Source: Chloroflexota bacterium (GTDB lineage: Bacteria > Chloroflexota > Dehalococcoidia > SZUA-161 > SpSt-899). From it: DNA of 51,485 nucleotides. The translations under genes were made by a program, and so were the position numbers. Location: NCBI GenBank assembly GCA_018657655.1, contig JABHWQ010000464.1, forward strand, positions 1-51,485, written 5' to 3'. This document shows positions 148 through 19,948 of the stretch, one piece after another (positions within the stretch are counted from its first letter, which is position 1; the number at the start of each line of letters is the position of its first letter). The notes beneath the pieces are model-generated. The model did not search any database. It had not been told where the DNA came from and worked only from the letters and a program-made list of their open reading frames with translations.

Positions 148-1566
148 ATGCGTATACCTGCGAAATACGAGTTGCTGCTGATAAACTTCTATTCATTATT
201 TGTAGTTCTAATAGTAACCCTTACCAGCATTGAGCCGCTTCGGATCGCAGTTAGTCTCCCTTTCTTACTTTTTCTCCCCGGATACACCCTCATAGCGGCC
301 GTATTTCATAGAAATTCCGATCTGGAAGACGGCATTGAAAGAGTAGCGTTCTCTATTGGATTGTCCATAGCGATTGTGCCCCTTACCGGGCTTCTTCTCA
401 ATTATATCTGGGCCATCCGGCTTGGCACTATCCTTACATTCCTGGTTCTCTTCATCGCTATTACCTCCGCAATTGCATGGTATCGCAAACGCAGCATTTC
501 GGAAGATGAAAGATCAGCCCTTGTTCTCCACTTGCCCCTGCCACAACTCAATAAGTCCGGCACACTGGAGAGAGTGTTATCCATACTTCTGGTTCTCTCG
601 GTTATTAGTGCTATTGCAGCTACAGCCTATACCGCCTTCCATTTCCCCGGCGAGGAGGAATACACCGAGTTTTATGTCTTGGGATTTGAAGGTAAAATGG
701 ATGGTTACCCCAGGGAAATCGAACTTGATAAAGAGGGAAATATAGCATCGGTTAAATACGCTTATCTAAAGAAGGATTATGGAGGACAAGTTCTGCCGGA
801 ACCGGAGATGATCGAAGAGAAAGACGAAAGTGCTCGAATACTGCTGGGTGTTGCAAATCAGGAACACCGAACCATGTTATACGAAGTGGAAATATTAGTG
901 GATAGCAATCATTCTGCCACCATTGGTCCGGTTGAACTATCTCACGGGGAAACATGGGAAGGCGAAACGGGATTTGTGCCCACTGAAGCTTCCGCTGTTA
1001 CCACATTGGCAGAATCGCTTACCGAAGATCAACGGGTCGTTGCAGTTCGGTCCACAGATGGCTTCGCTTCGGGAGATGAGGTTATTATTGGCGAGGATAG
1101 AACCCGAATAAAAGAGATCAGAGAACATTCATTCATACTTACAGAAACACTTGGCACATCTTATCCCGTCGGTACAAAAGTTACCAAAACCCAGCGGGTT
1201 GAATTCAGATTGCACAAAGTGCACATGCTCGGTGCACCGGGGCAGGAGCAATCATCGCTTTCTATATGGGCAGGAAATCACGGAATGAGTGTAATGGTTG
1301 CGAACCTCAGTGACAAAGAGGCGGATTACTCTCTACAGATTCGGGCACAGCCAGAGGTTGGGTATCAAACCGTTACTAAGGAAATCGGGCCTTTTCGGCT
1401 TGGTTCCGGCGAGAAGTGGAACGAGGAAATAATACTCGTCACAGATGATAGCGAAGTGAAGGATATGGAGTTCTACTTGTACCAAAATGGAGAACTCATA
1501 TATCAGGAGAACTCCCCTCCTGATGATTACCTGATGCTTCATTTGCAAATCGAGGTCACTAAATAG
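148..1566 (+). CDS. DUF1616-like integral membrane protein (N-terminal TM bundle plus large extracytoplasmic domain)
   Basis: 472-aa ORF. The N-terminus (LLFLPGYTLIAAVF...DGIERVAFSIGLSIAIVPLTGLLLNY) resembles the DUF1616 signature known mostly from archaeal surface-glycosylation neighbourhoods. It is the first gene of a co-directional membrane-protein trio. Confidence 0.55.
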   Translation: MRIPAKYELLLINFYSLFVVLIVTLTSIEPLRIAVSLPFLLFLPGYTLIAAVFHRNSDLEDGIERVAFSIGLSIAIVPLTGLLLNYIWAIRLGTILTFLVLFIAITSAIAWYRKRSISEDERSALVLHLPLPQLNKSGTLERVLSILLVLSVISAIAATAYTAFHFPGEEEYTEFYVLGFEGKMDGYPREIELDKEGNIASVKYAYLKKDYGGQVLPEPEMIEEKDESARILLGVANQEHRTMLYEVEILVDSNHSATIGPVELSHGETWEGETGFVPTEASAVTTLAESLTEDQRVVAVRSTDGFASGDEVIIGEDRTRIKEIREHSFILTETLGTSYPVGTKVTKTQRVEFRLHKVHMLGAPGQEQSSLSIWAGNHGMSVMVANLSDKEADYSLQIRAQPEVGYQTVTKEIGPFRLGSGEKWNEEIILVTDDSEVKDMEFYLYQNGELIYQENSPPDDYLMLHLQIEVTK

Positions 1567-1583
1567 GAAAAGACCAGGACAAA

Positions 1584-3485: not shown

Positions 3486-3492
3486 CTGAGAC

Positions 3493-4962
3493 ATGGCAAG
3501 TGGAGTACAACGATTCATCCGTGATGTAGGCTGGTCATTTGCCAGTCTGGCTATCTCAGCCTTTGCCCACTTTATCCTCCGTACATTCCTGGCCAGATAC
3601 CTGGGCACCGATGATTTGGGACTCTACACCCTTGCCTTCACCGTCTACTCCTTCGGCATGATCTTTGCCGCCGTTGGTATCGGGGCTGCGCTAATCAAGT
3701 ACGTTGCCGAAAACAAAGAAGATGCTGCCAAGATAGGAATCATGGTATCAAGTGGAACTATCACTGCGTTTCTCATTGGGAGTATTGTGGGACTTGTCCT
3801 CTATGCCTCTTCTTCTACCATAGCCAACAATTTCTTCGATATGCCGGAGTTGGAGAAACTATTACACATCGTTGCATTTGCATTTCCTTTCATTGCGTTG
3901 GAAAAAGCCACTTTAGGTTTCCTCAATGGGAAAAGACTAATGAGTCTTTTTGCCTCCATTAATATTACACAAAATATACTGACAATCATTTTCACACTGA
4001 TCCTAGTCCTTCTCGGATGCGGCCTCACCGGTGCTGTAGTCGGTTTGGTGGTGCCGATATGCATATGCAGCCTTTTCTCCTTGTTTGCCATACGAACATC
4101 GTTGGGGAAAACAACATTTGAACAATATATCCCTGTTACCAGAACGCTTCTGGTCTTTGGGGTATATGTTGCTCTGACAAATGGCATAGGAATGCTATGG
4201 GGTAATATGGATAGCCTTATGATTGGAGGCTTCTTGAGCGAAGAAGCTGTGGGACTTTATGCCGTGGCATTCCTATTATCTCAGGTAATACAAATACCAT
4301 CGTTAGCCATTCAAATAATTACCACTCCCACAATAGCTACCTATTGGGGCAAGGGAGACGTAGGCCAAATCGAAAACATGGTAAACAGGATGATGAAGAC
4401 TGTGGCTATCTTCATCATACCCATTGTCTTCCTGATGGTGTTTCTGTCTCATGAAATAATAACACTGCTTTTCGGGGAGAAATTCACCCCAGCGGTCCTC
4501 CCTTTTCAAATATTGTTAATAGGTGGCGTATTTGCTGCGATACTGACGACAGTGGGGGGCACCCTTTCCAGCACGGGCTATGTAAAAGTGTTATTCAAAC
4601 TTAGCATTGCTGGTTTGGTGCTGAACATGGTTTTCAACCTGTTACTAATTCCTCCTTTTGGTATCACCGGAGCTGCGATAGCAACTTCGACATCAACGAC
4701 ATTAGCTGTTATGTTTGTTTTTTACCTTTGGCAGCGACTGCTGAATATAAGAATACACTGGGAATGGTTTGCTAAGTTATTCACCTTTGCTGCACTTTTA
4801 ATGGGGACCACTTATGGACTTGGAATAATAGTCAATAGTTATGTTTGCATTCTAATCTCCTTCATTGTTCTTGTAGTTACTTTGCTAAAATACTTCGTTA
4901 CGAAAGAAGACCTTAGGCTAATAAAAATAATTATGGGATGGGCAGTTGACGATAGTGGATAA
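3493..4962 (+). CDS. wzx: Polysaccharide biosynthesis flippase (MOP superfamily, Wzx/RfbX-like)
   Basis: 489-aa multi-TM ORF. The N-terminal region (SFASLAISAFAHFILRTFLARYLGTDDLGLYTLAF) and overall topology are typical of Wzx-type flippases. Confidence 0.75.
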   Translation: MASGVQRFIRDVGWSFASLAISAFAHFILRTFLARYLGTDDLGLYTLAFTVYSFGMIFAAVGIGAALIKYVAENKEDAAKIGIMVSSGTITAFLIGSIVGLVLYASSSTIANNFFDMPELEKLLHIVAFAFPFIALEKATLGFLNGKRLMSLFASINITQNILTIIFTLILVLLGCGLTGAVVGLVVPICICSLFSLFAIRTSLGKTTFEQYIPVTRTLLVFGVYVALTNGIGMLWGNMDSLMIGGFLSEEAVGLYAVAFLLSQVIQIPSLAIQIITTPTIATYWGKGDVGQIENMVNRMMKTVAIFIIPIVFLMVFLSHEIITLLFGEKFTPAVLPFQILLIGGVFAAILTTVGGTLSSTGYVKVLFKLSIAGLVLNMVFNLLLIPPFGITGAAIATSTSTTLAVMFVFYLWQRLLNIRIHWEWFAKLFTFAALLMGTTYGLGIIVNSYVCILISFIVLVVTLLKYFVTKEDLRLIKIIMGWAVDDSG

Positions 4963-4999
4963 TTTTAGTCGGTGAACCCTCACAATAAAAGCATGGAAA

Positions 5000-5121
5000 G
5001 AGCCTGTTGCACAAAGCAGTGCAGGAGACCTCCTGCCGGGGGTTTGGGGGTGTCCCCCAACTCAAACCTCCCCCAAGATTGGGGGATCGAGGGGGTTGAA
5101 AAGGGTTTTTGCAACAGCCTC
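5000..5121. repeat. Compact GC-rich multi-hairpin element (REP/MITE-like)
   Basis: An outer stem pairs 5000-5011 with 5110-5121 (11 of 12 bp). It encloses the hairpins gcagga-gacc-tcctgc (5021-5036), ggggg-tgt-ccccc (5046-5058) and ccccc-aagatt-ggggg (5070-5085). The element shares a ~40-nt segment with 27408-27447 in inverted orientation. Confidence 0.7.
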
Positions 5122-5807
5122 GAAATCGAATTTATATCGAATGTCTCTGACATTGGTTTAAAAGAGAATATATTCGATCATGCACTCTCGACTCGATCGG
5201 GAATCTAGAGGGGTCGGGGACTGGATTCCGGTTCGCGGCCCGGATTGACATATCCAGCTACAAACCTTTACTTAATTAAGATGCGATTGGCCTGACAATA
5301 AAAGGGAGCAAGGTCACATCTGTATTGTATATGGAATAGAATCTCGACTAAGCAGGTTCAAATTCTCGATTGTATGGCAGTAGTTTTTCGATTATACTAT
5401 TAATCATATCAATGGGTTGAATTCCCCGCCGCTTGCGGCGACATGTTAAGACGTTCCCAATTGATATCCCGTCCGTTGGTGGCGGGGCAGTTTATTTCCA
5501 TTAGACGAATATTTTTCAAGTATAGTAACTTGTTCTTGATCATTCCAAAGCTATGTGAATATTTTAAGAATAGACATGAAATATGTGGCTCAATCGATGA
5601 GGGTAATTCTCTATATATGCCAATGTTGGGGGAACTTTGATCTATCCTTCGGATCAAGATCTTTCTCCAAATACCAACATTAACATTGGAAATGATATAA
5701 CAAATTGGTGGCAGGTAAGTTGGCCTAAGAAAATCAAACATCATATCTTGGAATCTATCCGATGAGAAGAATATAGATTCCTAACCTATATGTAGAGGAG
5801 ACTAGAT

Positions 5808-6578
5808 ATGAAAACAGTTATTCTCTGTGGTGGACAGGGGATGCGGTTGCGTGAGGAGACCGAGTTTCGCCCCAAACCACTTGTCCCCATCGGCGGAAAA
5901 CCTATTCTCTGGCACATTATGAAAATCTATGCTCATTATGGGTTCCGCGAATTTGTGCTTCCACTTGGTTATCGTGGTGACATGATCAAAGAGTGGTTAT
6001 TGAACTATGAAACAATGACCAATGATTTCAGTATCCATCTTGGCGAGAATAGTTCAATTGAGTATCATGATTCACATTTAGAACAGGATTTTGAAGTCAC
6101 TTTGGCCGATACTGGCCAGAATACGATGACTGGTGGAAGAATAAAACTGGTAGAGAAATATATATCTGGTGATACTTTCATGGTGACATATGGTGATGGG
6201 GTAGCAGATATAGATATTCGCTCACTCATGGAGTATCATCACAGTCATGGTCGGCTAGCTACAGTTACAGTAGTACATCCATCCCAACGATTCGGTGTCC
6301 TTGCGTTAGATGAGAGTTCATCAGTAGTCGATTTTGCCGAAAAACCTCAGATGAAAGACTGGATTAGTGCTGGGTTTTTGGTGTTCAACCGACGTATATT
6401 TAACTATTTAGAAGGTGCTGATTGCATTTTAGAGCGTGAGCCTCTTGAACGCTTAACTTCCGAAGGTGAGCTAGTGGCTTATAAGCATGAGGGTTTCTTC
6501 TATGGTATGGATACATACCGTGATTATATGCATCTCAACGATTTGTGGGATAAAGGACAAACTCCATGGACGAAATGA
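5808..6578 (+). CDS. rfbF: Glucose-1-phosphate cytidylyltransferase
   Basis: 256 aa. [41 protein letters not shown] is a near-canonical RfbF/DdhA N-terminus, and the length is right. Confidence 0.9.
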
Positions 6579-7570
6579 CAATAGATAATCCTTTTTGGCA
6601 AGATCGTCCTGTTTTTGTGACTGGAAGTACGGGGTTACTGGGGGGTTGGTTGGTGCAGCGACTTCTTCAACTTGGCGCTGATGTTATTTGCTTGGTACGA
6701 GATTGGGTACCACAAAGTGAAATGTTTCAGGTACACCTTGTTGACAAAGTGAGGGTTGTTCGCGGTGATATCTGCGACCAAAAGCTCTTGGAAAGAATAT
6801 TGGGAGAATATGAAATAGAGACTGTTTTCCACCTAGCCGCTCAAACAATTGTGGGTATTGCTAACAGGAATCCTATTTCAACTTTCGAGACCAATATTGG
6901 TGGAACTTGGGCGCTGCTAGAGGCATGTCGGCGAAGTCCAAAAGTGAGTGGAATTGTAATGGCTTCGTCTGACAAAGCATATGGTGATCAAATAATACTG
7001 CCGTATAACGAAGATACGCCACTGCAGGGACGATTTCCCTATGACGTAAGTAAATCTTGTGCTGATCTAATCTCTCAATCGTATTCCAAAACTTATGAGG
7101 TTCCAGTAGCCATCACTCGCTGCGGTAATTTCTATGGTGGAGGCGACTTGAACTGGAATCGCATTGTTCCAGGAACCATCCGCTCAGTGCTGCGTGGTCA
7201 AAAGCCCATGATACGATCTAATGGGCAGTATGTGCGCGATTATTTTTATATAGAGGACGGTGTGGCTGCCTATATTTTACTAGCCGAGAAACTTGCAACA
7301 AGCCCACAGTTGAGTGGTGAGGCGTTTAACTTTTCTAATGAAAGGCCAGTATCTGTAATTGAGCTTGTTCAAGATATCCTACAGTTGATGGCATCCGATA
7401 TGGAGCCAATAATAGAAAATGAGGCTGCGAACGAAATACTCCAACAATATCTAAGTGCCGACAAGGCGAGACAGGTGATTGGCTGGCATCCTATATTCAA
7501 TTTGGATGAGGGCCTAAAAAGAACTATTTCTTGGTATGAGGACTTTTTTGACCATGAGCGATACGCATGA
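6566..7570 (+). CDS. rfbG: CDP-glucose 4,6-dehydratase (extended SDR)
   Basis: 334 aa. [19 protein letters not shown] is the Rossmann motif and YDVSKSCAD is the YxxxK motif. The gene overlaps the rfbF stop (alternative ATGA start at 6575) and sits between rfbF and rfbH as in ddh/asc clusters. Confidence 0.7.
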
Positions 7571-8873
7571 TTTGTTAAGAAAACAGATTATTGGCTTGGT
7601 TCGTGACTATCATAAAGCTGCGTTCCCACCGCAACAATTTGTGCCTGAAGAGAGTCCTGTTCCTTATGCAGGACGTATCTTTGATAGTGAAGAACTTGTC
7701 AACTTGGTAGAAGCATCTTTAGACTTCTGGTTAACTACCGGCCGTTTTGCGGATCAGTTCGAAGATGAGTTTGCTAAATTCTTTGGATTAAATCATTGCA
7801 TTTTGGTCAATTCTGGTTCTTCAGCTAATCTGCTAGCACTATCTTGCCTAACCTCACATAAACTTGGTGAACGACGCTTAAGGCCAGGTGATGAGGTTAT
7901 CACTATTGCTTCAGGTTTCCCGACAACGGTTAATCCAATCATACAAAATCGGCTCATACCAGTGTTTGTTGACATAGATATTCCAACTTATAATGTGGAC
8001 GTGACACAACTTGAGAAAGCCCGTTCCAAGCGGACTCGCGCTGTGATGCTGGCCCACACACTAGGAAACCCTTTTGATGTAGCGGCTGTCGTGCATTTTG
8101 CTAAACAGCACGATTTGTGGCTCATCGAGGATTGCTGCGATGCAGTGGGCTCGACCTATAATGGGCAGAAAATCGGAACTTTTGGAGATATCGCCACAGT
8201 TAGCTTCTATCCTGCTCATCATATCACGATGGGCGAAGGAGGAGCAGTTCTCACGAACTCCCCTCTCCTTGAAGAGTTGGCGCTTTCATTTCGCGACTGG
8301 GGGCGTGATTGCTGGTGTAATCCGGGCAAAGACAATACTTGTGGTAAGCGTTTCGAGAAGCAATTGGGTGACCTTCCCTATGGATACGACCATAAATATG
8401 TTTATTCACATATTGGCTACAATCTTAAGCTAACTGATATGCAAGCAGCTGTGGGGGTAGCACAGTTAATAAAACTCCCGGCTTTTATCAAGAAAAGACA
8501 GGATAATTTCCGCTACCTATATGAAGGGCTCAAAGATATAGAGCATTACTTCATTTTACCTCAGGCTACCCCAAACTCAGTCCCAAGTTGGTTCGGTTTT
8601 CCGCTGACGTTGCGATCAGAAGTCCCCTTCACTCGAAACGATGTAGTACAGCATTTAGAAAATCATAGAATCGCTACAAGATTACTCTTTGGGGGTAATT
8701 TAGTGCGTCAACCAGCATATCGCGACATTGAACATAGAGTTGTTGGTAATCTGGTAAACTCGGATTCTGTGATGCACCAAACCTTCTGGTTTGGGGTGTA
8801 TCCGGGGCTTACGCAAGCTATGCTTGACTATGTGATTATGACTCTGAAAACATTCGTAAATGGCAAACGGTAA
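7554..8873 (+). CDS. rfbH: CDP-6-deoxy-4-keto-hexose 3-dehydrase (E1; PMP/[2Fe-2S] enzyme of the DegT/DnrJ/EryC1 fold)
   Basis: The RfbH-like block is [35 protein letters not shown]. The catalytic Lys is replaced by His ([14 protein letters not shown], compared with [14 protein letters not shown] in the aminotransferase at 38705). An exact C-X57-C-X1-C-X7-C cysteine motif is present, counted from codons 8136, 8310, 8316 and 8340. The ORF track starts at 7536, but the ATG at 7554 is more likely. Confidence 0.85.
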
Positions 8874-8991
8874 TGATCGTGTTAATATATATTATTGGTG
8901 CCACTGGATTTCGGAACTAATCATTAATGGCAATCTTTGCTTGAGTAAAAGCAGAAATTGAACTCTAAATTACGTCGAAGGAAGGACCAGA

Positions 8992-10500
8992 ATGAGTAAT
9001 CTTAATTCAGCAGAACCATTATTCGTTTTTGACATAGCAAATAATCACATGGGTAGTAGCGAGCATGGCCTCAAAATCATAAGACAAATTCATGATGTCA
9101 CCGAAGGCTTTGCTTTCAGTTTCGGATTCAAGCTTCAGTACCGTAATCTGGACACTTTTATTCATGCAGACTTCAAAACGAGATTGGATTTTAAGTATGT
9201 CAAGCGTTTCTCTGAGACTCGTCTTCCGTGGGACGAGATGAAAATGATGAAAGATGAGGCGAAGAAACTGGGGTTTATCACGATATGTACACCTTTTGAT
9301 GAACCCTCTGTTGATAAGATTGAAGAACATGATTTTGATATCATCAAAGTCGCAAGTTGCTCATTCACTGATTGGCCTCTTTGGGAACGGATTTCCAGAA
9401 CTGAGAAGCCCATAATTGCCTCCACTGCTGGCGCTTCCCTTGGGGATATTGACAAAGTGGTAGCCTTCCTAGAGCATCGAGGGAAAGACTTTGCTCTCAT
9501 GCATTGTGTAGCGGAGTATCCCACATCTGACGCCAATTTAGAGTTGGGGCAGATAGAACTTCTCGAAAAGCGATTTCCTCAAATTAGAGTCGGATATTCT
9601 ACACATGAGAGTCCTGATAACATGGCCGCTATTAAAGTAGCAATCGGCAAAGGCTCAAGTATATTTGAAAGGCATGTTGGTTTGGAGACAGAACAAATTA
9701 GTTTAAACGCATACTCCGCTACTCCAGAGCAAATCAGGCGATGGTTAGAGTCAGCCCAAATGGCGTTTGAGATGTGCGGCGTTCACGAGAAACGCTCAGA
9801 ATTCAGTGAAAGGGGAATTACGGAGTTAAAGGCATTACGTAGAGGGGCGTTTGCGATGCGCCAAATTAAAAAAGGGGAACGGATAGGTCAGACAGACGTT
9901 TTCTTTGCGATACCTACCTTCCCAGGTCAGATTACTGCCAACGACATGTCAAAATACTCTGACTTCTACACCGAAGCAGATATTGAAGAAAAAGCTCCCT
10001 TGCTTGATTCTAATACACTGCGGAGAGATATTCGAGAAAACATATATACTATCATATTACAGGTTAGGGAACTGGTTGAAAGAAGTGGTGTGATAGTTCC
10101 CAAACAGGTTGATGTTGAAATCTCTCACCATTATGGCGTCGATCGCTTTTACGACTTCGGGCTTACCATATTTACAGTGGTAAATCGTGAATACTGCAAG
10201 AAGTTGCTCATCCTTTTGCCAAAACAGCAGCATGCTGAGCAGTCGCATAAGGTAAAGGAAGAGACTTTTCATATCTTATATGGCGACTTATGGGTTAACT
10301 TAGATGGAGAAGTCAGGCAATGTAATCCTGGAGATGTAGTTACGGTGAATAGAGAGGTAAAGCATAGCTTTGGCACTGATACGGGGGCTATCATTGAAGA
10401 GATTTCATCAACACATTTTGCTGATGACTCTTCTTATACTGATATTGCTATTATGCAAAATAAACATCGTAAAACCCAACTGACGTACTGGCTTGACTAA
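8992..10500 (+). CDS. NeuB-family PEP-condensing synthase fused to SAF and C-terminal cupin domains
   Basis: 502 aa. NeuB landmarks are FDIANNHMG, KLQ, TPFDE, IKVASC, ASTAG, LMHCVAEYPT, VGYSTHE and ERHVGLE. A SAF-like segment (RRGAFAMRQIKKGERI) follows. The last ~140 aa are cupin-like (QHAEQSHKVKEETFHILYGDLWV...VKHSF). Confidence 0.7.
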   Translation: MSNLNSAEPLFVFDIANNHMGSSEHGLKIIRQIHDVTEGFAFSFGFKLQYRNLDTFIHADFKTRLDFKYVKRFSETRLPWDEMKMMKDEAKKLGFITICTPFDEPSVDKIEEHDFDIIKVASCSFTDWPLWERISRTEKPIIASTAGASLGDIDKVVAFLEHRGKDFALMHCVAEYPTSDANLELGQIELLEKRFPQIRVGYSTHESPDNMAAIKVAIGKGSSIFERHVGLETEQISLNAYSATPEQIRRWLESAQMAFEMCGVHEKRSEFSERGITELKALRRGAFAMRQIKKGERIGQTDVFFAIPTFPGQITANDMSKYSDFYTEADIEEKAPLLDSNTLRRDIRENIYTIILQVRELVERSGVIVPKQVDVEISHHYGVDRFYDFGLTIFTVVNREYCKKLLILLPKQQHAEQSHKVKEETFHILYGDLWVNLDGEVRQCNPGDVVTVNREVKHSFGTDTGAIIEEISSTHFADDSSYTDIAIMQNKHRKTQLTYWLD

Positions 10501-10518
10501 TCTTTTTAATTTAGATAT

Positions 10519-11127
10519 TTGGATAAAGGAACAGTGAAGACAATTGCCTGGGATGTGGATGACGTTCTGAATGACCTGATGCGATCATGGTTTGACGACT
10601 CTTGGAGGCCCTCTCATCTAGATTGCTTGCTGGATTATGACGGGATTGTAGAAAACCCGCCGCATGAACTGTTATGTGTGAGTATGTCTGAGTATTTGAT
10701 TTCGCTGGATAGCTTTCGCTTCTCAGAAGCTATCAGAAAAATGCGCCCTGTACCAGAGGTGATAACTTGGTTCCACCAACATGGAGAGCGATTTCGACAC
10801 ATAGCACTCACGGCAACACCTCTACGGGCTGCACCTTTATCTTCCGCTTGGGTTATGCATCATTTCGGTAAGTGGATTCGCTCTTTTAATGTGATTCCCT
10901 CCAAACGACAAAGTGAACAAATACCAATATACGACCAGTCAAAAGAGGAATTTTTGAGATGGTTTGGGAGAGTAGATATCTTAGTCGATGATAGTCCGGT
11001 GAATGTCGCGGAAGCACAAACATTGGGGATTCAGGCAATACTCTTACCACGCCCTTGGAATCAAAGCCCTTTGACTCTAGTTGAGGCTCTCAACGTCTTG
11101 GCGACTTTGGCAGATACGACTTCTTGA
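10519..11127 (+). CDS. HAD-superfamily phosphatase (NT5C/5-prime-nucleotidase-like)
   Basis: 202 aa with the DxDxV nucleophile motif near the N-terminus (IAWDVDDVLND). The start is TTG at 10519 (alternative GTG at 10534). It lies directly after the NeuB-like gene. Confidence 0.6.
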   Translation: MDKGTVKTIAWDVDDVLNDLMRSWFDDSWRPSHLDCLLDYDGIVENPPHELLCVSMSEYLISLDSFRFSEAIRKMRPVPEVITWFHQHGERFRHIALTATPLRAAPLSSAWVMHHFGKWIRSFNVIPSKRQSEQIPIYDQSKEEFLRWFGRVDILVDDSPVNVAEAQTLGIQAILLPRPWNQSPLTLVEALNVLATLADTTS

Positions 11128-11160
11128 AAGGCACAGTCAGAGACTGAGGTAATAGAGCTT

Positions 11161-12963
11161 ATGAAATTATCTGATTACATATTTCAACGCCTTGCTAAAG
11201 AGGGGGTACGACATGTCTTCCTTTTGCCAGGCGGTGGTGCAATGCATCTTGTGGATTCTCTTGGTAAGTGCAAGGAAATTGAATTTGTCTGCAATCTCCA
11301 CGAGCAGGCTTGTGCAATAGCAGCCGATGCTTATAGCCAATATACGGGCAACCTTGGTGTGGCATTGGTTACGACTGGCCCGGGGGGCACAAATACTGTA
11401 ACTGGGGTGGCGGGGGCTTGGCTTGATTCCACCCCCTGTTTATTCATTTCGGGTCAAGTCAAACGAACTGACCTCATTGGTGATCGTGGAGTGCGACAGA
11501 TGGGCTTCCAGGAACTCAATATTGTGCATATAGTAGAATCCATTACCAAGTATGCAGTCACAGTTGTTGACCCAAATTCTATTAGGTATCACCTAGAAAA
11601 GGCACTGTTTTTTGCCAGAAATGGCCGTCCAGGCCCTGTATGGCTTGATATTCCGCTAGATGTACAAGCTGCCCATATTAACGAGGATGAGTTGGAAGGA
11701 TTCGATCCTAAGGAAATCACAACATCACTTAAAAACAGCGTGCTCAAACAACAGATAAGCGAGCTAATACAACTTCTCAATCAGGCTGAGAGACCAGTTA
11801 TATTAGTAGGAAATGGTGTTAGGCTAGCAAAAGCGATAGGAGACTTTTACCAACTAATTGAGACCCTTCAAATTCCCGTTCTCACCACATGGAGAGCAAC
11901 TGATTTTTTAGGAGAAGACCATCCTCTCTATATTGGCCGACCAGGGGCTATTGGGCAGCGAGGGGCTAATTTCGCCCAGCAGAATTCAGATTTGATATTG
12001 ATTCTTGGGGCGCGTCTTGATCTTGGGCAAACAGGATACAGCCACTCTAATTTTGCTCGAACTGCTAAAAAAATCATGGTTGATGTTGATAATGCCGAGA
12101 TAGAGAAGATGGAATTTAAGATCGACATACCAATATGCGTTGATGCAAAGGGTTTTATTCGAGAATTTCTCCAACAAAAGAATACCACAGTAGTCAAAGA
12201 TCGATCATCTTGGTTGTCACGCTGTCGAGAATGGAAGTCTAGTTACCCTGTTGTCCTGCCCAACTACTGGGATGAGTCGATGGGTGTAAGCCTCTACGTT
12301 CTTGTAGACGTGCTATCTGATGAGATGTCCGCTGACGATTTACTGGTGCCAGGCAGCTCAGGAGCTTGCAGTGAGGTTACTATGCAAGCGTTCAGGGTGA
12401 AGCCAGGCATGCGTGTTTTGAATAATCCTGGCCTTGGAGCAATGGGGTATGGGCTTCCTGCCAGTATAGGTGCCTGCCTAGGGAGCGGGCGTAAACGGAC
12501 GATATGTGTTGTTGGGGATGGGGGATTCCAACTAAATATCCAAGAGTTAGAGACAATTAAGCGTTTAAATCTACCAATTAAGGTTTTCGTGTTGAACAAT
12601 GAAGGATACGCCTCTATAAGGGCGACGCAGCAGTCCCATTTTGAGGGGCGTTTCGTAGCTAGTAGTGTATCAAGCGGATTAACCCTTCCCGATAGCCTCA
12701 AGATTGCTTCTGCCTATGGCTTAGCTTCGGCACAAATATTGAACCATTCTCACATTACGGAACATGTACGTCAAGTGCTAGAGCAAGACGGCCCCGTAGT
12801 GTGTGATGTGATGATCTCGCCTAATCAGAGCACTTCACCACGACTGTCTTCGATGCAAGGAGCGAATGGTACGATGGTGTCTAAACCGTTGGAGGACTTA
12901 TGGCCTTTTCTGGACCGCAAAGAATTCTTGGCCAATATGATTATTCCACCATTAGATGAGTAG
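11161..12963 (+). CDS. Thiamine-diphosphate-dependent enzyme, acetolactate-synthase large-subunit-like (YerE-like candidate sugar carboligase)
   Basis: 600 aa. The Pyr domain reads HEQACAIAADAYSQYTGNLGVALVTTGPGGTN. The ThDP/Mg motif is GDGGFQLNIQELETIKRLNLPIKVFVLNNEGY (GDG-X-NN). No small regulatory subunit or other ilv genes are nearby. Confidence 0.8.
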   Translation: MKLSDYIFQRLAKEGVRHVFLLPGGGAMHLVDSLGKCKEIEFVCNLHEQACAIAADAYSQYTGNLGVALVTTGPGGTNTVTGVAGAWLDSTPCLFISGQVKRTDLIGDRGVRQMGFQELNIVHIVESITKYAVTVVDPNSIRYHLEKALFFARNGRPGPVWLDIPLDVQAAHINEDELEGFDPKEITTSLKNSVLKQQISELIQLLNQAERPVILVGNGVRLAKAIGDFYQLIETLQIPVLTTWRATDFLGEDHPLYIGRPGAIGQRGANFAQQNSDLILILGARLDLGQTGYSHSNFARTAKKIMVDVDNAEIEKMEFKIDIPICVDAKGFIREFLQQKNTTVVKDRSSWLSRCREWKSSYPVVLPNYWDESMGVSLYVLVDVLSDEMSADDLLVPGSSGACSEVTMQAFRVKPGMRVLNNPGLGAMGYGLPASIGACLGSGRKRTICVVGDGGFQLNIQELETIKRLNLPIKVFVLNNEGYASIRATQQSHFEGRFVASSVSSGLTLPDSLKIASAYGLASAQILNHSHITEHVRQVLEQDGPVVCDVMISPNQSTSPRLSSMQGANGTMVSKPLEDLWPFLDRKEFLANMIIPPLDE

Positions 12964-13107
12964 AGCGAAAGTTTTAAGAAACCTTTAAGGGCCAACTAGT
13001 GGAAATCACCGATAAATAATCGATAGGCATGCAACAGTTTTTGGTTGTAAGATAAATTAGTAGAGTAAAATTATGTCGGGAAGCCGTTTGGTGGCTTTAT
13101 CAAAATT

Positions 13108-14124
13108 ATGCAATGTCCATGTTGTGAATCAGACAGAGTAATTCTTTCCAATACCCCCGAACCACATATGTTTTGCAGGGTATGTTTCCATCGCTGTAAG
13201 ACCCTCATCCCATCTAAGAACTACTATAAAAACTTATCAGGCCGATCAAAAATGCTTGAAGAAAATTTGGGAAGGAAAAGTCGAGAAAGGCTTGAATTTT
13301 TAGAGCAATATTTGCAGAGAGGAATGCTAATATTAGAAATTGGCTGCGCTGAGGGGGCACTCGGTGAAGTCATTAGACGTAATTTTGATGTTGCCTATTA
13401 TGGCATAGAGCCTTCACTTGATGCCAAGATTGCCATATCAAGATTAGACGAAGTGTGGGTATCAATTAACAAAGTACCTCCAAATCTGCAATTTGATATC
13501 ATAATAGCATTTCATGTGTTCGAACACATTCACAATATTGGAAATATGATGTCTAAGTTATGTAAGTTGCTTAGTAGTAACGGGATTATCATATTTGAGA
13601 CGCCTAATTATTTTGGAAACACACGGTTACCATGGGACTTCAATAAGGAGCATATCCACTTGTTTAGTCCGGCATCTATATCATGTCTACTTGAAAAACG
13701 GGGGGTTGGCGTGAGAGAACTGAGTACAGGTCATTACGAGTCAGCCATCTATGATGACTCAATGAGGGTAGTTGGCTCTAAGAAAAAAGGGGTAAAGGAA
13801 CTAAAGCATAATTTTGTTGATCGTCTTCAGCGCTTCTTGGGTGATCGATATATAATATATGGGATCGGGGGGGATTTTGAAGCTCTAGTGTTACCTTACG
13901 TAAAAGCTTCTAGTGTAATCGCGATTATAGATAGTTCCAAGGACAAGGTTGGTAAGCGCGTGATTGGCAAGACCGTTCAAGGGCCAGGAGTAATTGATGA
14001 TTATCTCACTGAAATATTTTTCATTGCCACATATCGATACCAAAATCAAATTATACAAGTGCTCAATGAGAAGGGGATTTGTAGATCGCATATTATTACT
14101 TTGCAAGATATTTTAGAGAATTGA
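13108..14124 (+). CDS. SAM-dependent methyltransferase with N-terminal Cys4 zinc ribbon and C-terminal Rossmann-like domain (NDP-hexose C-methyltransferase-like architecture)
   Basis: 338 aa. It has a Cys4 ribbon (CPCC...CRVC), SAM motif I (LEIGCAEGALG), FDIIIAFHVFEHI, and a C-terminal IIYGIGGDF...IDSSKDKVGKRVIGKTVQGP resembling the C-terminal domain of TylC3-type C-methyltransferases. Confidence 0.65.
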   Translation: MQCPCCESDRVILSNTPEPHMFCRVCFHRCKTLIPSKNYYKNLSGRSKMLEENLGRKSRERLEFLEQYLQRGMLILEIGCAEGALGEVIRRNFDVAYYGIEPSLDAKIAISRLDEVWVSINKVPPNLQFDIIIAFHVFEHIHNIGNMMSKLCKLLSSNGIIIFETPNYFGNTRLPWDFNKEHIHLFSPASISCLLEKRGVGVRELSTGHYESAIYDDSMRVVGSKKKGVKELKHNFVDRLQRFLGDRYIIYGIGGDFEALVLPYVKASSVIAIIDSSKDKVGKRVIGKTVQGPGVIDDYLTEIFFIATYRYQNQIIQVLNEKGICRSHIITLQDILEN

Positions 14125-14182
14125 TTTTAGAGAGCATCACCAAATATAATGTGCGGAAGAGTTAACGTGGAGGGCTCGTTTA

Positions 14183-15247
14183 ATGACAGATAGCAAAAAA
14201 GCTGATCTTTGCGATAGAATGCAAACCCGGGAGAGGCTCAAAATAGAAAAGCCTATTGTATACAATAAATTCATAGAACTGGATGCAAAATTGAATAAAG
14301 GAGAGGCCCCTCCCCCGGTAATTGAAATCGGTTATCGGTATGATTGTAACCTCAAATGTAAACACTGTTTTGCAAGCCTGTTCGACAAGAAAGAGAAAAG
14401 TCTATCATTATTGGATATGAAAAACTTATCTGAGCAGGCGAATGAGCTTGGCATATATCAGTTTATACTCCAGGGCGGAGAGCCACTTTATTGGCCGGAT
14501 TTCGACGATGTAGTGAATGCCATTAATCCGAAAGAATTTTATATGGGGCTTGTTACTAATGCCACATTACTAAACCGAGAAAAAATCATTCATCTTAGAA
14601 ATATTGGAATCGATAAAATCGTCATGAGTCTTGATTCCTACGATGTTGATCAATTTGAAGGAATTCGTAATCGACCTGGGTTGTTTGACCACACTATTGC
14701 CATGCTGCTTCAGGCTAAAGAGGTTGGCTTGCGGGTTGTGATCAATACTTTAGCCACAAAACAAAACGTCAGAGATCCCCAGTTGCTCGAATTGGTTAAG
14801 TTCGCGGAGAAGCATAACATCATAGTTTACGTGAATTTTGCAGCGCCGATTGGGAATTGGGAAGGCCGGTATGACCTGCTTCTCGATCAGGATGATGCAG
14901 ATTATATTTATAATTTGAATCGGCAGCATGAGGTGATAAAGAGAGACATATTCCCTTATATGGGGATTAAAGTGGGGTGTCCCGCTTTTAGAGAGATTGT
15001 GTATATAACACAATATGGCGATGTCCTTCCATGCCCATTTATACACATTTCCGTTGGCAATATATTTGATGAACCTCTGTCTCGGATTATAGAGAAAGGA
15101 ATGCGAGTTAAGTGGTTTAAGGATCGGTCTCAGGTATGCCTGGCGTGTGAAGACGTAAATTTCATAAAAAACAAGATATCAAAAACATATGGATTGCCTT
15201 CTCCTGTCAGCATGCACGAGATATTTACGGAAGATGAATTTGATTAA
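14183..15247 (+). CDS. Radical SAM enzyme with Cys-rich C-terminal auxiliary-cluster (twitch/SPASM-like) region
   Basis: 354 aa. The CxxxCxxC motif is CNLKCKHC, with GGEPL downstream. C-terminal cysteines are GCPAF...LPCPF...VCLAC. Confidence 0.85.
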   Translation: MTDSKKADLCDRMQTRERLKIEKPIVYNKFIELDAKLNKGEAPPPVIEIGYRYDCNLKCKHCFASLFDKKEKSLSLLDMKNLSEQANELGIYQFILQGGEPLYWPDFDDVVNAINPKEFYMGLVTNATLLNREKIIHLRNIGIDKIVMSLDSYDVDQFEGIRNRPGLFDHTIAMLLQAKEVGLRVVINTLATKQNVRDPQLLELVKFAEKHNIIVYVNFAAPIGNWEGRYDLLLDQDDADYIYNLNRQHEVIKRDIFPYMGIKVGCPAFREIVYITQYGDVLPCPFIHISVGNIFDEPLSRIIEKGMRVKWFKDRSQVCLACEDVNFIKNKISKTYGLPSPVSMHEIFTEDEFD

Positions 15248-15271
15248 TATGGTGAATCAAAGATAACTGCT

Positions 15272-16555
15272 ATGTACATGTATATTGGAATTGAAATCAG
15301 CTCTTGGTGTAATGCTAAGTGCCCGTGGTGTTTTACTACTAAGCCCGCCGATAGGGTTAATTTTAACCCAGTTGCGAATGTGATGAGCCTAGATACTTTT
15401 ATAGACGTAATCGAACGGTTAGAAACATTGGGTTTGCTTCATGATGATGTTGTTATTAATCTTTACGAAATCGGCGAACCTTTTCTAAACAGAGATATAT
15501 CTAGAATTATCAGTTATTTGAATTCTAAATCTCTTAAATATGCCATAAGCACCAATGCTTCAGTCTTACCATCATTTGAAGAAGGAACCAACATTTTAAG
15601 TAATTTATCCTATCTTATTATTTCTATGCCAGGCTTTAGTCAAGAGTCTTATGATAGAGTACACGGTTTTCGGTTTGACAGAATTAAGAAGAATATCATA
15701 GGACTTATAACAAATTTTCGCAATAGCGGTTTCATAGGAGATGCCAGACTTATCTATCACGTCTATCAGCTTAATATAGATGAGATATATAAAGCCAAGG
15801 CATTTGCTGATGAAAACCATATTGACTTCTATCCTTATTATGCGATTCTTTATGAATGGAAATATGTGTGGGAATACCTATCCGATACCCTTTCGTATGA
15901 TTTGCTTAAGAAAGCCTCTGAAGAATTATTCTTGGGGAATATTGAGAAGACAATATCGGCTCGCAGGCCTGATTTTGTGTGTGAGTTTCTTAATATGTTG
16001 TTGATTGATGTAGATTGCGATTTAAAGACTTGTTGTCAAATCAAGAAAGGGGATCCGGGCTATTCATATGGCAGTATTTTCAACTTATCAGCAGAAGAAA
16101 TAATAACAAAACGAACTACTCAGCAGATATGCAAGAAATGTCAGACAAAAGGAATGGATTATTACCTATCTTGCTACACATTATTTAATCTACATTCCAG
16201 CACTGCGGGGCAATCTGAAAACGGCCATACACATAAAGACTTACTGAAATTAATACGGGGGAGTGCTGGGCAGGAAATCATTTTGTTTGGTGCCGGTGAA
16301 TTCGGTATAAAAGCGGTCAGATATCTAAATGACGAAAACATTGGGGTCAATTATTTCTCGGATAACAGCCCATTAAAAATTGGGAAACAAATTTCTGGAG
16401 TTAATGTTATTGCGCCTTGGGATATACTTAATCAATGCACAGATCCATTGGTTATTATTACTACCATAAATCACAGGCAGGTATTTAATCAGATTTCTCA
16501 GTTAGGAATCAGATCAGTTTATTACTTCCCGCTAGAGGTATATATACAACAATGA
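15272..16555 (+). CDS. Radical SAM enzyme with Cys-rich middle region fused to a C-terminal Rossmann-like domain
   Basis: 427 aa. The CxxxCxxC motif is CNAKCPWC, 13 aa from the start. Cys-rich segments are CEF...DCDLKTCCQ...CKKCQ. The C-terminal EIILFGAGEFG...SDNSPLKIGKQISGVNVIAP aligns with the C-terminus of the methyltransferase at 13108. Confidence 0.8.
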   Translation: MYMYIGIEISSWCNAKCPWCFTTKPADRVNFNPVANVMSLDTFIDVIERLETLGLLHDDVVINLYEIGEPFLNRDISRIISYLNSKSLKYAISTNASVLPSFEEGTNILSNLSYLIISMPGFSQESYDRVHGFRFDRIKKNIIGLITNFRNSGFIGDARLIYHVYQLNIDEIYKAKAFADENHIDFYPYYAILYEWKYVWEYLSDTLSYDLLKKASEELFLGNIEKTISARRPDFVCEFLNMLLIDVDCDLKTCCQIKKGDPGYSYGSIFNLSAEEIITKRTTQQICKKCQTKGMDYYLSCYTLFNLHSSTAGQSENGHTHKDLLKLIRGSAGQEIILFGAGEFGIKAVRYLNDENIGVNYFSDNSPLKIGKQISGVNVIAPWDILNQCTDPLVIITTINHRQVFNQISQLGIRSVYYFPLEVYIQQ

Positions 16556-17577
16556 AGAAATATTCTGAACTTCGCGATACCGAACGTTTCTCGGTAGAGA
16601 GATTATTGCCACTGAAATTTCCCCTAAGTATATATATTGAGACAACAAATCGATGTGGTTTTCGATGTCGATATTGCCCTCTATCACTTTCCGATTATGC
16701 AAAAATCATAGGCGAGTCCAGGAATATGAGTCTTCTCGAGTTTAAGAATATCTGCGATAGTATCCAAGTGGGCGGACGACTCAAAGTACTTCGGTTTTAT
16801 CTAATGGGCGAGCCCTTGTTAAATCCGCATTTGTCAGAAATGATAAAGGTGGCTTGTCAAATGAGGTTGGCTGAAAGAACAGAAATCACTACCAACGCGG
16901 TACTTCTAAATGGAGAAAAGTCTCGAGAGATTATTAATTCAGGGCTGGATTATCTCAGAGTCAGCATATCGAGCGTGGATCAGAGTCGACACGAATACAT
17001 TACCCAAACAAACATCCAAGTAGAACATATTTATAGCAATATCAAACAATTTAAACAGATTCGAGACGGAATGGGGCGTCAAAAGCCGTTTCTCTACGTT
17101 AAAATGCTTGACTCCTTAAACAATGTAGAAAATTTAAAATTTTTGCAAATGTATCAAGCGGTCGGGGATGAAATAGTCATTGAAAAGCCAATGAATTGGG
17201 ATAGCTTCAATAATCATGATTTGCTTCGGTCTACCTATAAAGAAGATAAGATGCCCGATTCAGAGGGAATGTACCCGTACCCGAAAACAGTGTGTCCCTT
17301 TCCTTTTTATACCCTTGCAGTCAATGTTAACGGGGATGTGACGGTATGTTGTGTTGATTGGAACAAGGGAACCAAAGTTGGTAATGTTTTTGAAGCCACT
17401 CTCAAATCTATCTGGGATGGGGATGAAATGCGGGATTTCCGTCGGATGCATATATTAAGGAAGCGAACTCTAAATTCCTCATGCGCCAATTGCCAATTTC
17501 TTTCTACTGTCCCCGATAATTTGGATAACATGTCAGAGTCAAAGATTAAAGCTATAATTGGTTCGAGTCAATTATAA
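16552..17577 (+). CDS. Radical SAM / SPASM-like enzyme
   Basis: 341 aa. The CxxxCxxC motif is CGFRCRYC. The C-terminal Cys set is CPFPF...VCCVDW...CANCQ. The gene has a 4-nt ATGA overlap with the preceding gene. Confidence 0.85.
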   Translation: MKKYSELRDTERFSVERLLPLKFPLSIYIETTNRCGFRCRYCPLSLSDYAKIIGESRNMSLLEFKNICDSIQVGGRLKVLRFYLMGEPLLNPHLSEMIKVACQMRLAERTEITTNAVLLNGEKSREIINSGLDYLRVSISSVDQSRHEYITQTNIQVEHIYSNIKQFKQIRDGMGRQKPFLYVKMLDSLNNVENLKFLQMYQAVGDEIVIEKPMNWDSFNNHDLLRSTYKEDKMPDSEGMYPYPKTVCPFPFYTLAVNVNGDVTVCCVDWNKGTKVGNVFEATLKSIWDGDEMRDFRRMHILRKRTLNSSCANCQFLSTVPDNLDNMSESKIKAIIGSSQL

Positions 17578-17660
17578 AGAGCAATGCAAAATATTGAAGT
17601 TGTAGATGTGAACCATGCCTTTAGATTAGGTGATGGTGGTTCAATCCATGAAAGAGAAGA

Positions 17661-18683
17661 ATGAAAATGGGTTTACCTGTCTTATCAATATGTATTCCAA
17701 CATTCAATCGTTCACAGTATCTTAAGGAGTGTCTGGAAAGTGTGTTATCGTCAGCTAAAGGGTACGAGGATCAAATCGAAATAGTAATTTCTGATAATGC
17801 CAGTACTGATGATACCGCCTCAGTTGTGAGTGAATTCGAAAAACGCAGCTCAAGAATAAGGTATCACAGAAATGACACTAATATCTATATAGAAAACTTT
17901 TTTGTGGTATCTGGATTGGCATTGGGGGAATACGTATGGATATTTGGTGATGATGATAAAGTGATGGATGGGGCTATCCCTACCATCTTAAATCGAATTA
18001 AGTCAGGATATGACTTAATATTTTGCAACTATTCAATTTGGTCAAAAGATTTTTCTACATTACAGAACGAAAGGAACCGTTTGGTTGATTTAGAAGAAGA
18101 GTATAATGATGCAAATTTATTACTGGAACGCATCGGGATCTACTTGGGTTACATATCGATTTGTATAATCAAAAAGAACGTCTTCTTTAGTACTCCGCCC
18201 GGGCTACACATGGAATACGGTTTTCCCCATGTATATTGCATGTACGCAGGGTTAGCTACAAATTGTCGTGCGGTATATATTCCCGCAACGTTAGTGCTCA
18301 ATCGCGCGGGCAATGTTTACTTACCTGAGTGGAATAAATTCTTTATAACCGGAACCTCTCTAGTTTTTGAGGCGCTTCTGGAAAAAGGGTATACTCAAAA
18401 GGCAGTATATCGTGCCAAACACCAACATCTCAGATCTATCATTAGTTATAGTTGGACGCAATCTCAGAGTTCTGCTGATTTAAAAACGGTGGCTCAACTA
18501 GCATTACCTCATTATAAGAAAGACTGGCTATTTTGGGTAACTTGCATGCCTATCGCATATCTTCCTGTCCCGCGGTTCTTCTTGAGATTCACCATAAAAA
18601 TGGCTCAATTAGTGTTAGTTGTGAACAGATCGGTGTCGAGAAGATTCAACCATGCCTTCAGCTTTTTAGCGAGACGAAGATAG
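17661..18683 (+). CDS. Family 2 glycosyltransferase
   Basis: 340 aa. LSICIPTFNRSQYLKECLESVL...IVISDNASTDDT is a typical GT-A/GT2 N-terminus. The C-terminus has a hydrophobic segment. Confidence 0.8.
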   Translation: MKMGLPVLSICIPTFNRSQYLKECLESVLSSAKGYEDQIEIVISDNASTDDTASVVSEFEKRSSRIRYHRNDTNIYIENFFVVSGLALGEYVWIFGDDDKVMDGAIPTILNRIKSGYDLIFCNYSIWSKDFSTLQNERNRLVDLEEEYNDANLLLERIGIYLGYISICIIKKNVFFSTPPGLHMEYGFPHVYCMYAGLATNCRAVYIPATLVLNRAGNVYLPEWNKFFITGTSLVFEALLEKGYTQKAVYRAKHQHLRSIISYSWTQSQSSADLKTVAQLALPHYKKDWLFWVTCMPIAYLPVPRFFLRFTIKMAQLVLVVNRSVSRRFNHAFSFLARRR

Positions 18684-18818
18684 TGTGGAGTGGTTTATTG
18701 AGTTAGGGCATTCTGTTAAGAGGGTGGAACTATACCGTAGAAGCGGTCATGTGAACCTTGGCAAACAACAAGTTTTTACCGATAAGAATTTCAGCGGGCT
18801 TTTGAAGGGCGTTATGGC

Positions 18819-19757
18819 ATGAATCAAGTCGTTATTACAGGTGCCACCGGGCCTTTAGGCATTGCCTTATGTAAGTATCTTGCAGAATTAGGAATATCTG
18901 TGACCGCAATAGCTCGCCCTGGGTCTAGACGCAGGGCAGATATCCCGGTTTCACAGAAGATTCAGATTATCGAGTGTGATCTTGGTGATTTATTTTCGCT
19001 TAGTGATAAGATTGGTTATAATTATGATACTTTTTTTCATATTGCGTGGGATACAGGGTCGCGCGAAATTGTTAATGACCCGCTTATTCAGTCGCGTCAG
19101 GTTATCTATCCCTTAGATGCTGTGCGGCTTGCCCATAATTTGGGGTGTAGGGCATTTGTTGGTGCCGGATCTCAGGGTGAATATGGTAACAGTGGAAGTT
19201 TACTTGCGCCAGATTCTCCGGAAAGGCCTGTATCAAGCTACAGTATTGCAAAATATGCTGCGGGTAAACTCAGTCGACAGTTGTGTGAATCTTTCGGGAT
19301 GCGGCATTGTTGGGGCCGTATTTTGAGTTTGTATGGACCGTTTGATAAAGAGACAACGAGTATTATGTATTGCGTTTATACTTTGTTAAAGGGGGAGAGA
19401 CCAGTATTAACTAAATCAGAACAGATGTGGGATTTCATTTACAGTGTTGATTGCGCAAAAGCCTTTTATCTTATTGCGACAAAGGGAAGACATGGCATGG
19501 CTTATCCAATAGGTACGGGAAAGGCTAGGTCAATGAAAGAATATTTTGAATGTATCAGAGGTTATATAAACCCATCGCTTAAATTAGGTTTCGGAGAGAA
19601 GCCTTATGCTCCAAACCAGCTTATGCTTCTATGCTCGGATAATACGGTGCTAAAGACTGATACCGGGTTTGAGCCGGAGTACACTTTTGAAGAAGGGATT
19701 AGAGAGACTATTGAATGGGCCAAGAAGAGGGTGCAGACGGAGAATAATAGCGGATAA
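18819..19757 (+). CDS. NAD(P)-dependent epimerase/dehydratase/reductase family SDR (candidate sugar ketoreductase)
   Basis: 312 aa with ITGATGPLGIALCKYL (Rossmann) and YSIAKYAAGK (YxxxK). It is the last gene of the + strand operon. Confidence 0.75.
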   Translation: MNQVVITGATGPLGIALCKYLAELGISVTAIARPGSRRRADIPVSQKIQIIECDLGDLFSLSDKIGYNYDTFFHIAWDTGSREIVNDPLIQSRQVIYPLDAVRLAHNLGCRAFVGAGSQGEYGNSGSLLAPDSPERPVSSYSIAKYAAGKLSRQLCESFGMRHCWGRILSLYGPFDKETTSIMYCVYTLLKGERPVLTKSEQMWDFIYSVDCAKAFYLIATKGRHGMAYPIGTGKARSMKEYFECIRGYINPSLKLGFGEKPYAPNQLMLLCSDNTVLKTDTGFEPEYTFEEGIRETIEWAKKRVQTENNSG

Positions 19758-19948
19758 ATTCCATGGCCGGTTAACTTCATTCACTCCATTAATTGGGATC
19801 CCGTCAACAGGGATGCAAATAGGCCTGGTAACTCAGACCCGGTAAATGTAGTTTATTAGTATAATTAGTTATCCGGATTAGGTAGCCAAGATTATATGAT
19901 AGCAGTTTGTGGTCAGAATGCCCAACCGTTTTTCGTTTATGTCTTGCA

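Follow-up and report, generated by a model that had tools for sequence, protein, structure and literature searches.

A probable gastriose-like branched-sugar cassette in a Chloroflexota bacterium, with a NeuB-cupin fusion as candidate maker of the acyl donor

Acyl-branched 3,6-dideoxyhexoses are rare surface sugars and are antigens in Yersinia, Pectobacterium and mycobacteria. In the unifying scheme of Steitz et al. (2022, PMC9306805), a dedicated enzyme supplies a keto acid, which is then joined to cytidine diphosphate (CDP)-4-keto-3,6-dideoxyglucose by a YerE-like enzyme, and a reductase completes the product. Here we describe a gene cluster of this kind on a contig of 51,485 nucleotides from a Chloroflexota bacterium (assembly GCA_018657655.1, contig JABHWQ010000464.1), the whole of which we call the window. 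It holds the genes for a CDP-sugar acceptor, a YerE-like carboligase dependent on thiamine diphosphate (ThDP), and a fusion of a NeuB-type synthase with a cupin domain. The kind of pathway has already been published, and the locus is an orthologous copy of the Mycobacterium gastri-type cassette in another phylum, with extra tailoring by radical-SAM enzymes (SAM, S-adenosylmethionine). We put at roughly 0.6 the probability that it makes a 3,6-dideoxyhexose, activated as the CDP derivative and bearing a carbon branch on C4, that belongs with gastriose and caryophyllose and not with yersiniose.

A gastriose-type cassette is thereby placed in a probable Chloroflexota anaerobe, and its carriers extend to several hundred species of Bacteria, the Candidate Phyla Radiation (CPR) and DPANN-type Archaea. 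Two biochemical questions are raised by it, namely which keto acid the NeuB-isomerase fusion makes and what reduces an E1 dehydrase that has no E3 reductase. YerE-like ThDP enzymes are also sought as biocatalysts for chiral tertiary alcohols, and this toolbox would be extended by a subfamily whose donor is defined and comes from a sugar. More than 200 YerE-like clusters have reportedly been surveyed in silico by Krug in 2024.

The gastriose cluster of M. gastri (MyGE, MygI and MygF; PMC9306805) shares with the window RfbF, an RfbG-like short-chain dehydrogenase/reductase (SDR), E1, a HAD phosphatase, methyltransferases and a second SDR, as well as a NeuB-SAF-cupin fusion directly upstream of the ThDP gene. 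Identities to the window are 54% for the NeuB-cupin protein, 55% for E1 and 53% for RfbF. The two differ in that the M. gastri host belongs to the Actinomycetota, its HAD enzyme is of HAD_2 type as against the NT5C type of the window, the RfbG types are only 31% identical, and the window has three radical-SAM enzymes in addition. The locus of strain DSM 43505 (L061 in our comparison) comprises genes for an SDR, E1, RfbF, a GT2 glycosyltransferase, the NeuB-cupin protein, the ThDP enzyme, a HAD phosphatase, methyltransferases and a second SDR, with a polyketide synthase adjoining. A C4-branched 3,6-dideoxyhexose in the lipooligosaccharide (LOS) of this species was reportedly described by Gilleron in 1993, going by the title of that work. 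There is a single YerE-like gene in the M. gastri genome, at the LOS locus on contig C119, and the HpcH-type aldolases lie on other contigs, which by elimination leaves the NeuB-cupin gene as the likeliest identity of the "aldolase MygI" of Steitz et al.

The yersiniose A pathway of Yersinia pseudotuberculosis (DdhA-D/AscA-D, YerE, YerF) uses the same acceptor-forming enzymes and a ThDP enzyme of the same subclass. The window differs from it in having neither E3/DdhD nor a clear YerF orthologue, and its ThDP gene is linked to a NeuB-type synthase and a phosphatase, both needless for the pyruvate donor used in Yersinia. The making of erwiniose in Pectobacterium atrosepticum (ErwE/F/I/J) and of caryophyllose in M. 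marinum (MMAR_2331-2333) follows the same logic, in that a dedicated C-C-forming enzyme provides a 4-hydroxy-2-oxo acid and a YerE-like enzyme attaches it to CDP-4-keto-3,6-dideoxyglucose; such acids are required by ErwE, which does not take pyruvate (PMC9306805). The donor maker in those systems is a pyruvate aldolase, either BphI-like or HpcH/citrate-lyase-like, whereas the window has a NeuB-isomerase fusion dependent on phosphoenolpyruvate (PEP), together with a phosphatase. With regard to E1, a useful comparison is SpnQ, a 3-dehydrase that likewise has His for Lys, a [2Fe-2S] motif and no dedicated E3. SpnQ acts on TDP-4-keto-2,6-dideoxyglucose (TDP, thymidine diphosphate) in the spinosyn pathway of an actinomycete, whereas the window enzyme is by its sequence a CDP-type E1/RfbH.

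Genes for the acceptor sugar

The core of the cassette consists of six genes:

5808..6578, plus strand: RfbF/DdhA glucose-1-phosphate cytidylyltransferase, the maker of CDP-glucose (TIGR02623 equivalog, PF00483)
6566..7570, plus strand: RfbG/DdhB-like CDP-glucose 4,6-dehydratase, a divergent SDR (TIGR02622 below cut-off; 1RKX/1WVG; SDK and YxxxK motifs)
7536..8873, plus strand: E1 (RfbH/DdhC/AscC), CDP-4-keto-6-deoxyglucose 3-dehydrase dependent on pyridoxamine phosphate (PMP) and [2Fe-2S] (NF011936, 3BCX, His and Cys motif)
8992..10500, plus strand: three-part fusion of a NeuB-type PEP-condensing synthase, a SAF domain and a cupin resembling D-lyxose isomerases, proposed to make the 2-keto-acid donor (PF03102, Cupin_2)
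10519..11127, plus strand: HAD-superfamily phosphatase, NT5C-like, with a TTG start (weak PF06941 match, HAD motifs)
11161..12963, plus strand: YerE-like ThDP-dependent carboligase, the branching enzyme (PF02776, PF00205, PF02775; tree)

The initial annotation of the window had read rfbF and rfbG followed by an E1-type dehydrase, and the three genes do stand in a row at the head of this list. In a scan with equivalog profiles, the first product scored 314.5 bits with TIGR02623 against a cut-off of 300.25. The SDR encoded at 6566-7570 reached 233 bits with TIGR02622, under the cut-off of 278. Its top structural relatives are the CDP-glucose 4,6-dehydratases 1RKX (173 bits) and 1WVG (170 bits), which are the Yersinia and Salmonella enzymes and its best solved relatives, as against at most 138 bits for dTDP-glucose dehydratases. 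The SDR retains SDK and YxxxK motifs, and its identity to the gene in the same position of three related loci (L001-L003) is 64-73%. These belong to a set of related loci that numbers 83 overall. With the NeuB-cupin protein as query, relatives turned up in 411 species, and the 80 best loci entered the comparison.

The product of 7536-8873 scored 741.8 bits with the RfbH equivalog NF011936 (cut-off 423) and gave 594 bits to the Yersinia E1 (3BCX) versus 187 bits to ColD, which places it with the Yersinia E1 and rules out a ColD-type identity. The replacement of the pyridoxal-phosphate (PLP) lysine by His, noted at the outset, was confirmed: His stands at the aminotransferase Lys position within SFYPAHH, and the 14-residue active-site peptide, which begins at residue 223, is identical to the aligned peptide of the Yersinia E1. 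The cysteines C201-X57-C259-X1-C261-X7-C269 have the exact spacing of the [2Fe-2S] motif, again as first read, and most E1 homologues of the related cassettes retain this motif. By these scores and motifs, the gene product is a CDP-type E1/RfbH of the Yersinia E1 type. The evidence on RfbF, the RfbG-like SDR and E1 supports the view that the window encodes the enzymes for a CDP-4-keto-3,6-dideoxyhexose.

The carboligase and its proposed donor

A ThDP enzyme of 600 amino acids with a GDG...NN motif and no ilv context had been reported here, and this description holds: GDG-X24-NN is found at position 452 of the protein and the HEQ glutamate at position 47, and the neighbours of the gene are sugar genes rather than ilv genes. 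The name of its top NCBIfam match, acolac_lg (396 bits), and the JGI annotation of its homologues as acetolactate synthase would suit a genuine acetolactate/acetohydroxyacid synthase (AHAS), or another housekeeping ThDP enzyme, stranded in a sugar island. We regard this as extremely improbable and reject the AHAS reading. All AHAS equivalog models stayed under their cut-offs (TIGR00118, 396.6 bits versus 538); the source genome has its genuine AHAS on a separate contig, C158, with 776 bits; no gene for a small regulatory subunit adjoins the window gene, and its sugar-gene context is conserved across the related loci. In a maximum-likelihood tree, the window enzyme formed a single clade with 21 related-locus enzymes (that of M. 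gastri included), PpYerE and JanthE, and a 100/100 branch parted this YerE-like clade from E. coli IlvI, Gcl and PoxB, Arabidopsis AHAS and the genome's own AHAS. By profile and phylogeny, then, the enzyme is a YerE-like carboligase and not an acetolactate synthase.

The window enzyme is 51-52% identical to the ThDP enzyme of the M. gastri locus. Its closest solved structures are 8RPH, at 410 bits, and 5AHK, at 324 bits, with plant AHAS at about 255 bits. We take 5AHK to be PpYerE. 8RPH is JanthE, a YerE-like lyase of Janthinobacterium whose physiological substrates are unknown (PMC12188165). JanthE differs from the window enzyme in having CDG in the ThDP motif where the latter has GDG. A C-terminal extension of about 35 residues is common to the window enzyme, the M. 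gastri enzyme and JanthE, with a conserved PLED(L/M)xP motif (PLEDL in JanthE and the window enzyme) and a basic residue (SPR/SPK). It is encoded at 12800-12963 of the window and at 13200-13383 of L061, and alignments with PpYerE and AHAS stop before it.

The fusion protein encoded at 8992-10500 is one of the features that set the cassette apart from the yersiniose pathway. Its N-terminal part, a NeuB-type barrel with SAF, gave 403 bits to the structural-genomics entry 3G8R, and the NeuB motif residues K47/Q49, K119/S122, H171/Y176, S203/H205 and E226/H228 are invariant among 82 homologues. Both pertinent equivalogs remained under their cut-offs (PseI 132.7 bits against 340, NeuB 124.1 bits against 400). 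The cupin part aligns with D-lyxose isomerases in two segments that jointly cover most of the domain. In a structural model of high confidence (pLDDT 93), its top fold matches are the D-lyxose isomerases 2Y0O and 7NZP, with a TM score of about 0.75 over some 170 columns, compared with about 0.5 over some 90 columns for generic cupins. Residues H419, K422, E424 and H458 line up with the metal ligands and the lysine of D-lyxose isomerases, three of the four metal ligands being kept. In the HAD phosphatase, the motifs D12-x-D14, T98, K142 and D157-D158 are 94-100% conserved across 51 homologues. Since the catalytic residues of all three domains are conserved, the NeuB-cupin and HAD genes look functional.

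The linkage of these genes to the carboligase was assessed in the 46 loci that have at least 7 kb on both sides of the NeuB-cupin gene, which we call full loci. A ThDP homologue adjoins the NeuB-cupin gene in every one of them (46/46), usually starting 0-930 bp past the NeuB-cupin stop in the related loci. Of the full loci, 38 encode E1, 33 RfbF and 39 a HAD phosphatase. The complete order rfbF-rfbG-E1-NeuBcupin-HAD-ThDP recurs in Nostoc, in Syntrophobacter sp. SbD1 and on a contig of metagenomic origin to which the ThDP protein led. Hosts of the cassette are spread over many bacterial phyla, Patescibacteria/Saccharibacteria, and metagenome-assembled genomes (MAGs) of Altiarchaeota and Micrarchaeota, and the closest named relatives of the window cassette include MAGs of Chloroflexota/Anaerolineales. 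The HAD slot is filled by an NT5C-type enzyme in 30 of the full loci and by an unrelated HAD_2-type enzyme in nine. As two unrelated HAD types fill one slot, it looks like a case of non-orthologous displacement, which argues for a phosphatase step being required. Across L004-L083, the slot holds an NT5C-like gene in 50 loci and a HAD_2 gene in 15, and never both in one locus.

The association of the NeuB-cupin and HAD genes with this ThDP subfamily, together with the same arrangement in M. gastri, argues for a longer, polyhydroxylated branch derived from a NeuB-made 2-keto acid. The initial annotation had proposed a CDP-linked branched 3,6-dideoxyhexose of yersiniose type. The first part is supported, inasmuch as the acceptor enzymes and a YerE-like carboligase are encoded; a two-carbon branch from pyruvate does not find support, given the linkage in all 46 full loci. 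For the latter to hold, the ThDP enzyme would have to take pyruvate as YerE does and attach an acetyl branch, while the NeuB-cupin and HAD enzymes made an unrelated ulosonic acid for the same glycan. There is precedent in YerE itself (PMC9306805, PMC12247030), pyruvate is accepted in vitro by both MyGE and JanthE, NeuB-family enzymes normally make glycosyl units, and CTP_transf_3 genes are present elsewhere in the genome. We nevertheless judge this alternative rather unlikely, because a NeuB-cupin gene beside the ThDP gene in every full locus, across many phyla, is not expected of two independent pathways, and the nearest characterised cluster is that of M. gastri and not that of Yersinia. Moreover, no CMP-ulosonate synthetase (PF02348; CMP, cytidine monophosphate) was found in the window, and the CTP-transferases of the genome adjoin a canonical NeuB of their own: on contig C458 (11813-14622), this NeuB (267 bits) lies 1.6 kb from a CTP_transf_3 gene. 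A second CTP_transf_3 gene lies 20 kb off on the same contig, at 34201-34827, and together these genes represent a separate conventional nonulosonic or Kdo-type pathway.

Several observations weigh against a long-branched sugar of the gastriose/caryophyllose class. MyGE uses pyruvate in vitro, with 40% conversion when benzaldehyde is the acceptor (PMC9306805, Table 1). The identification of MygI with the NeuB-cupin gene is our own. In the cupin, Gln417 replaces the first His ligand of D-lyxose isomerases. In the ThDP tree, PpYerE served as a stand-in for YpYerE, ErwE and MMAR_2332. No clear YerF/MygF orthologue was found in the window, and the candidate at 18819-19757 showed no significant match to the second SDR of M. 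gastri (E 1e-3). Finally, E1 is missing within 10 kb in eight of the 46 full loci (L014, L028, L043, L044, L051, L059, L063 and L073); such NeuB-cupin/ThDP loci may graft their branch onto a different keto-sugar acceptor. A conventional E3 elsewhere in the genome, discussed below, would tell against the part of the reading in which E1 works without one.

Electron supply to E1 and the proposed route

The absence of E3 from the 51 kb, which had been pointed out from the start, turned out to reach well beyond the window. No PF00175 or PF00970 domain was found anywhere in the assembly, window included, which comprises 2.67 Mb in 547 contigs and is 75.4% complete, and no open reading frame resembling ferredoxin-NAD(P) reductase (FNR) was accepted in any of the 83 related loci. 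There is no E3 within the 21.5-kb stretch around the gene at the M. gastri locus, and the cassettes of the related loci have no other redox protein in common. The missing E3 is a general trait of the cassette family. Two regex matches to an FNR-type E3 in the related loci were dismissed, as neither has the Fe-S motif. Proteins of the source genome with a Fer2 domain were also considered as E3 and set aside, since their sequences look RACo-type or other.

A conventional E3 (DdhD/AscD) could still sit in the unassembled 25% of the genome and form a standard E1/E3 system with the window enzyme, a prospect to which the incompleteness and fragmentation of the assembly lend themselves, as does the presence of some PF00175 protein in 46 of 50 further cassette genomes. 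It is nonetheless unlikely. In none of the 83 loci is an E3 linked to the cassette, and in two complete cassette-bearing chromosomes the distance to the nearest PF00175 gene is about 0.6 Mb in one and exceeds 1.2 Mb in the other. The remaining four of the 50 genomes have no PF00175 protein at all, among them a Patescibacteria genome of 0.7 Mb in which E1 has retained the Fe-S motif, and the Fer2 proteins of the source genome come without any FNR module in the assembly. Where PF00175 proteins of CPR genomes were checked as possible E3 enzymes, those of two of the three other genomes (G019 and G025) proved to be membrane proteins resembling ferric reductases, in unrelated contexts. The data can be explained without invoking a dedicated E3 in the unassembled quarter.

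The ferric-reductase-like proteins of Patescibacteria are 430-440 amino acids long and combine Ferric_reduct, FAD_binding_8 and NAD_binding_1 domains (L101, 34-1329; L100, 5181-6494). In one of these genomes the gene adjoins genes for a cupredoxin and DsbB.

What the source genome does encode are several 2-oxoacid:ferredoxin oxidoreductases, flavodoxin-like proteins and an apparent flavodiiron protein, a set that fits an anaerobe with low-potential carriers. SpnQ works with general ferredoxin/ferredoxin reductase or flavodoxin/flavodoxin reductase pairs (PMC8987622), and by analogy the E1 of the window is probably reduced by a general ferredoxin or flavodoxin.

We envisage the following route. 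RfbF would form CDP-glucose, which the RfbG-like SDR would convert to CDP-4-keto-6-deoxyglucose. E1 would then remove the 3-hydroxyl through PMP, with His in place of the usual Lys, and reduce the resulting glucoseen intermediate through its own [2Fe-2S] cluster, the electrons coming most likely from the general low-potential ferredoxin/flavodoxin pool. In parallel, the cupin domain, of D-lyxose-isomerase type, would turn a ketose into an aldose, and the NeuB domain would condense this aldose with PEP to a 3-deoxy-2-ulosonic acid. The starting compound may be a sugar or a sugar phosphate, and the HAD phosphatase could remove the phosphate either before or after the NeuB condensation, so that cupin, NeuB and HAD together would formally resemble KdsD, KdsA and KdsC. 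The YerE-like enzyme would decarboxylate the keto acid and add the resulting acyl anion to the CDP-sugar at its C4 ketone; an SDR would reduce the carbonyl of the branch, the methyltransferase and radical-SAM enzymes would tailor it, and the GT2 enzyme would transfer the product.

Taken jointly, two propositions are about evenly balanced between holding and failing: that the NeuB-isomerase fusion makes a Kdo/KDN-like 3-deoxy-2-ulosonic acyl donor, not a glycosyl unit, which the ThDP enzyme grafts onto the CDP-sugar; and that the CDP-type E1 of the family deoxygenates C-3 without a dedicated E3, by way of general low-potential carriers, even in anaerobes and in ultra-small genomes that lack an FNR-fold protein.

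Downstream and flanking genes

Beyond the ThDP gene, the plus strand continues with the genes proposed above for tailoring, transfer and reduction:

13108..17577, plus strand: tailoring block of one SAM methyltransferase and three radical-SAM enzymes (Pfam matches)
17661..18683, plus strand: GT2 glycosyltransferase, the likely transferase of the finished sugar (PF00535)
18819..19757, plus strand: SDR, an uncertain candidate for a YerF/MygF-like reductase of the branch carbonyl (PF01370)

Among the 83 related loci, homologues of the first radical-SAM enzyme occur in 27, of the third in 13 and of the methyltransferase in 17, and the GT2 gene recurs in 29. The SDR of 18819-19757 shows an identity of only about 25% to the second SDRs of L001-L003 and of 54% to one gene of L015. 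The genes from 5808 to 19757 most likely form one plus-strand operon. A scan of 4900-20200 for promoters and terminators found sites no more numerous than in shuffled sequences and is uninformative on the limits of the operon.

Two further genes recur in the cassette loci, for a NUDIX protein in 22 of them (for example L033, 15883-16389) and for a B12-binding radical-SAM enzyme in 19 (for example L009, 15590-17272). The plus-strand operon of the window contains neither of them; a B12-radical-SAM gene is found at 31621-33060 on the minus strand.

Next to the operon, a second ThDP module occupies 19949-24215 on the minus strand. It contains a transketolase split into N- and C-terminal halves (21477-23245), flanked by genes for an SDR, a hexapeptide acetyltransferase and an aldo/keto reductase, and could be the route to a further sugar of this island, either C-branched or with an extended chain.

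The head of the island, at 148-4962 of the window, encodes a DUF1616 membrane protein, a 633-amino-acid protein without a family match and a Wzx-type flippase. DUF1616 is mostly archaeal, and the named closest relatives of the cassette genes are bacterial.

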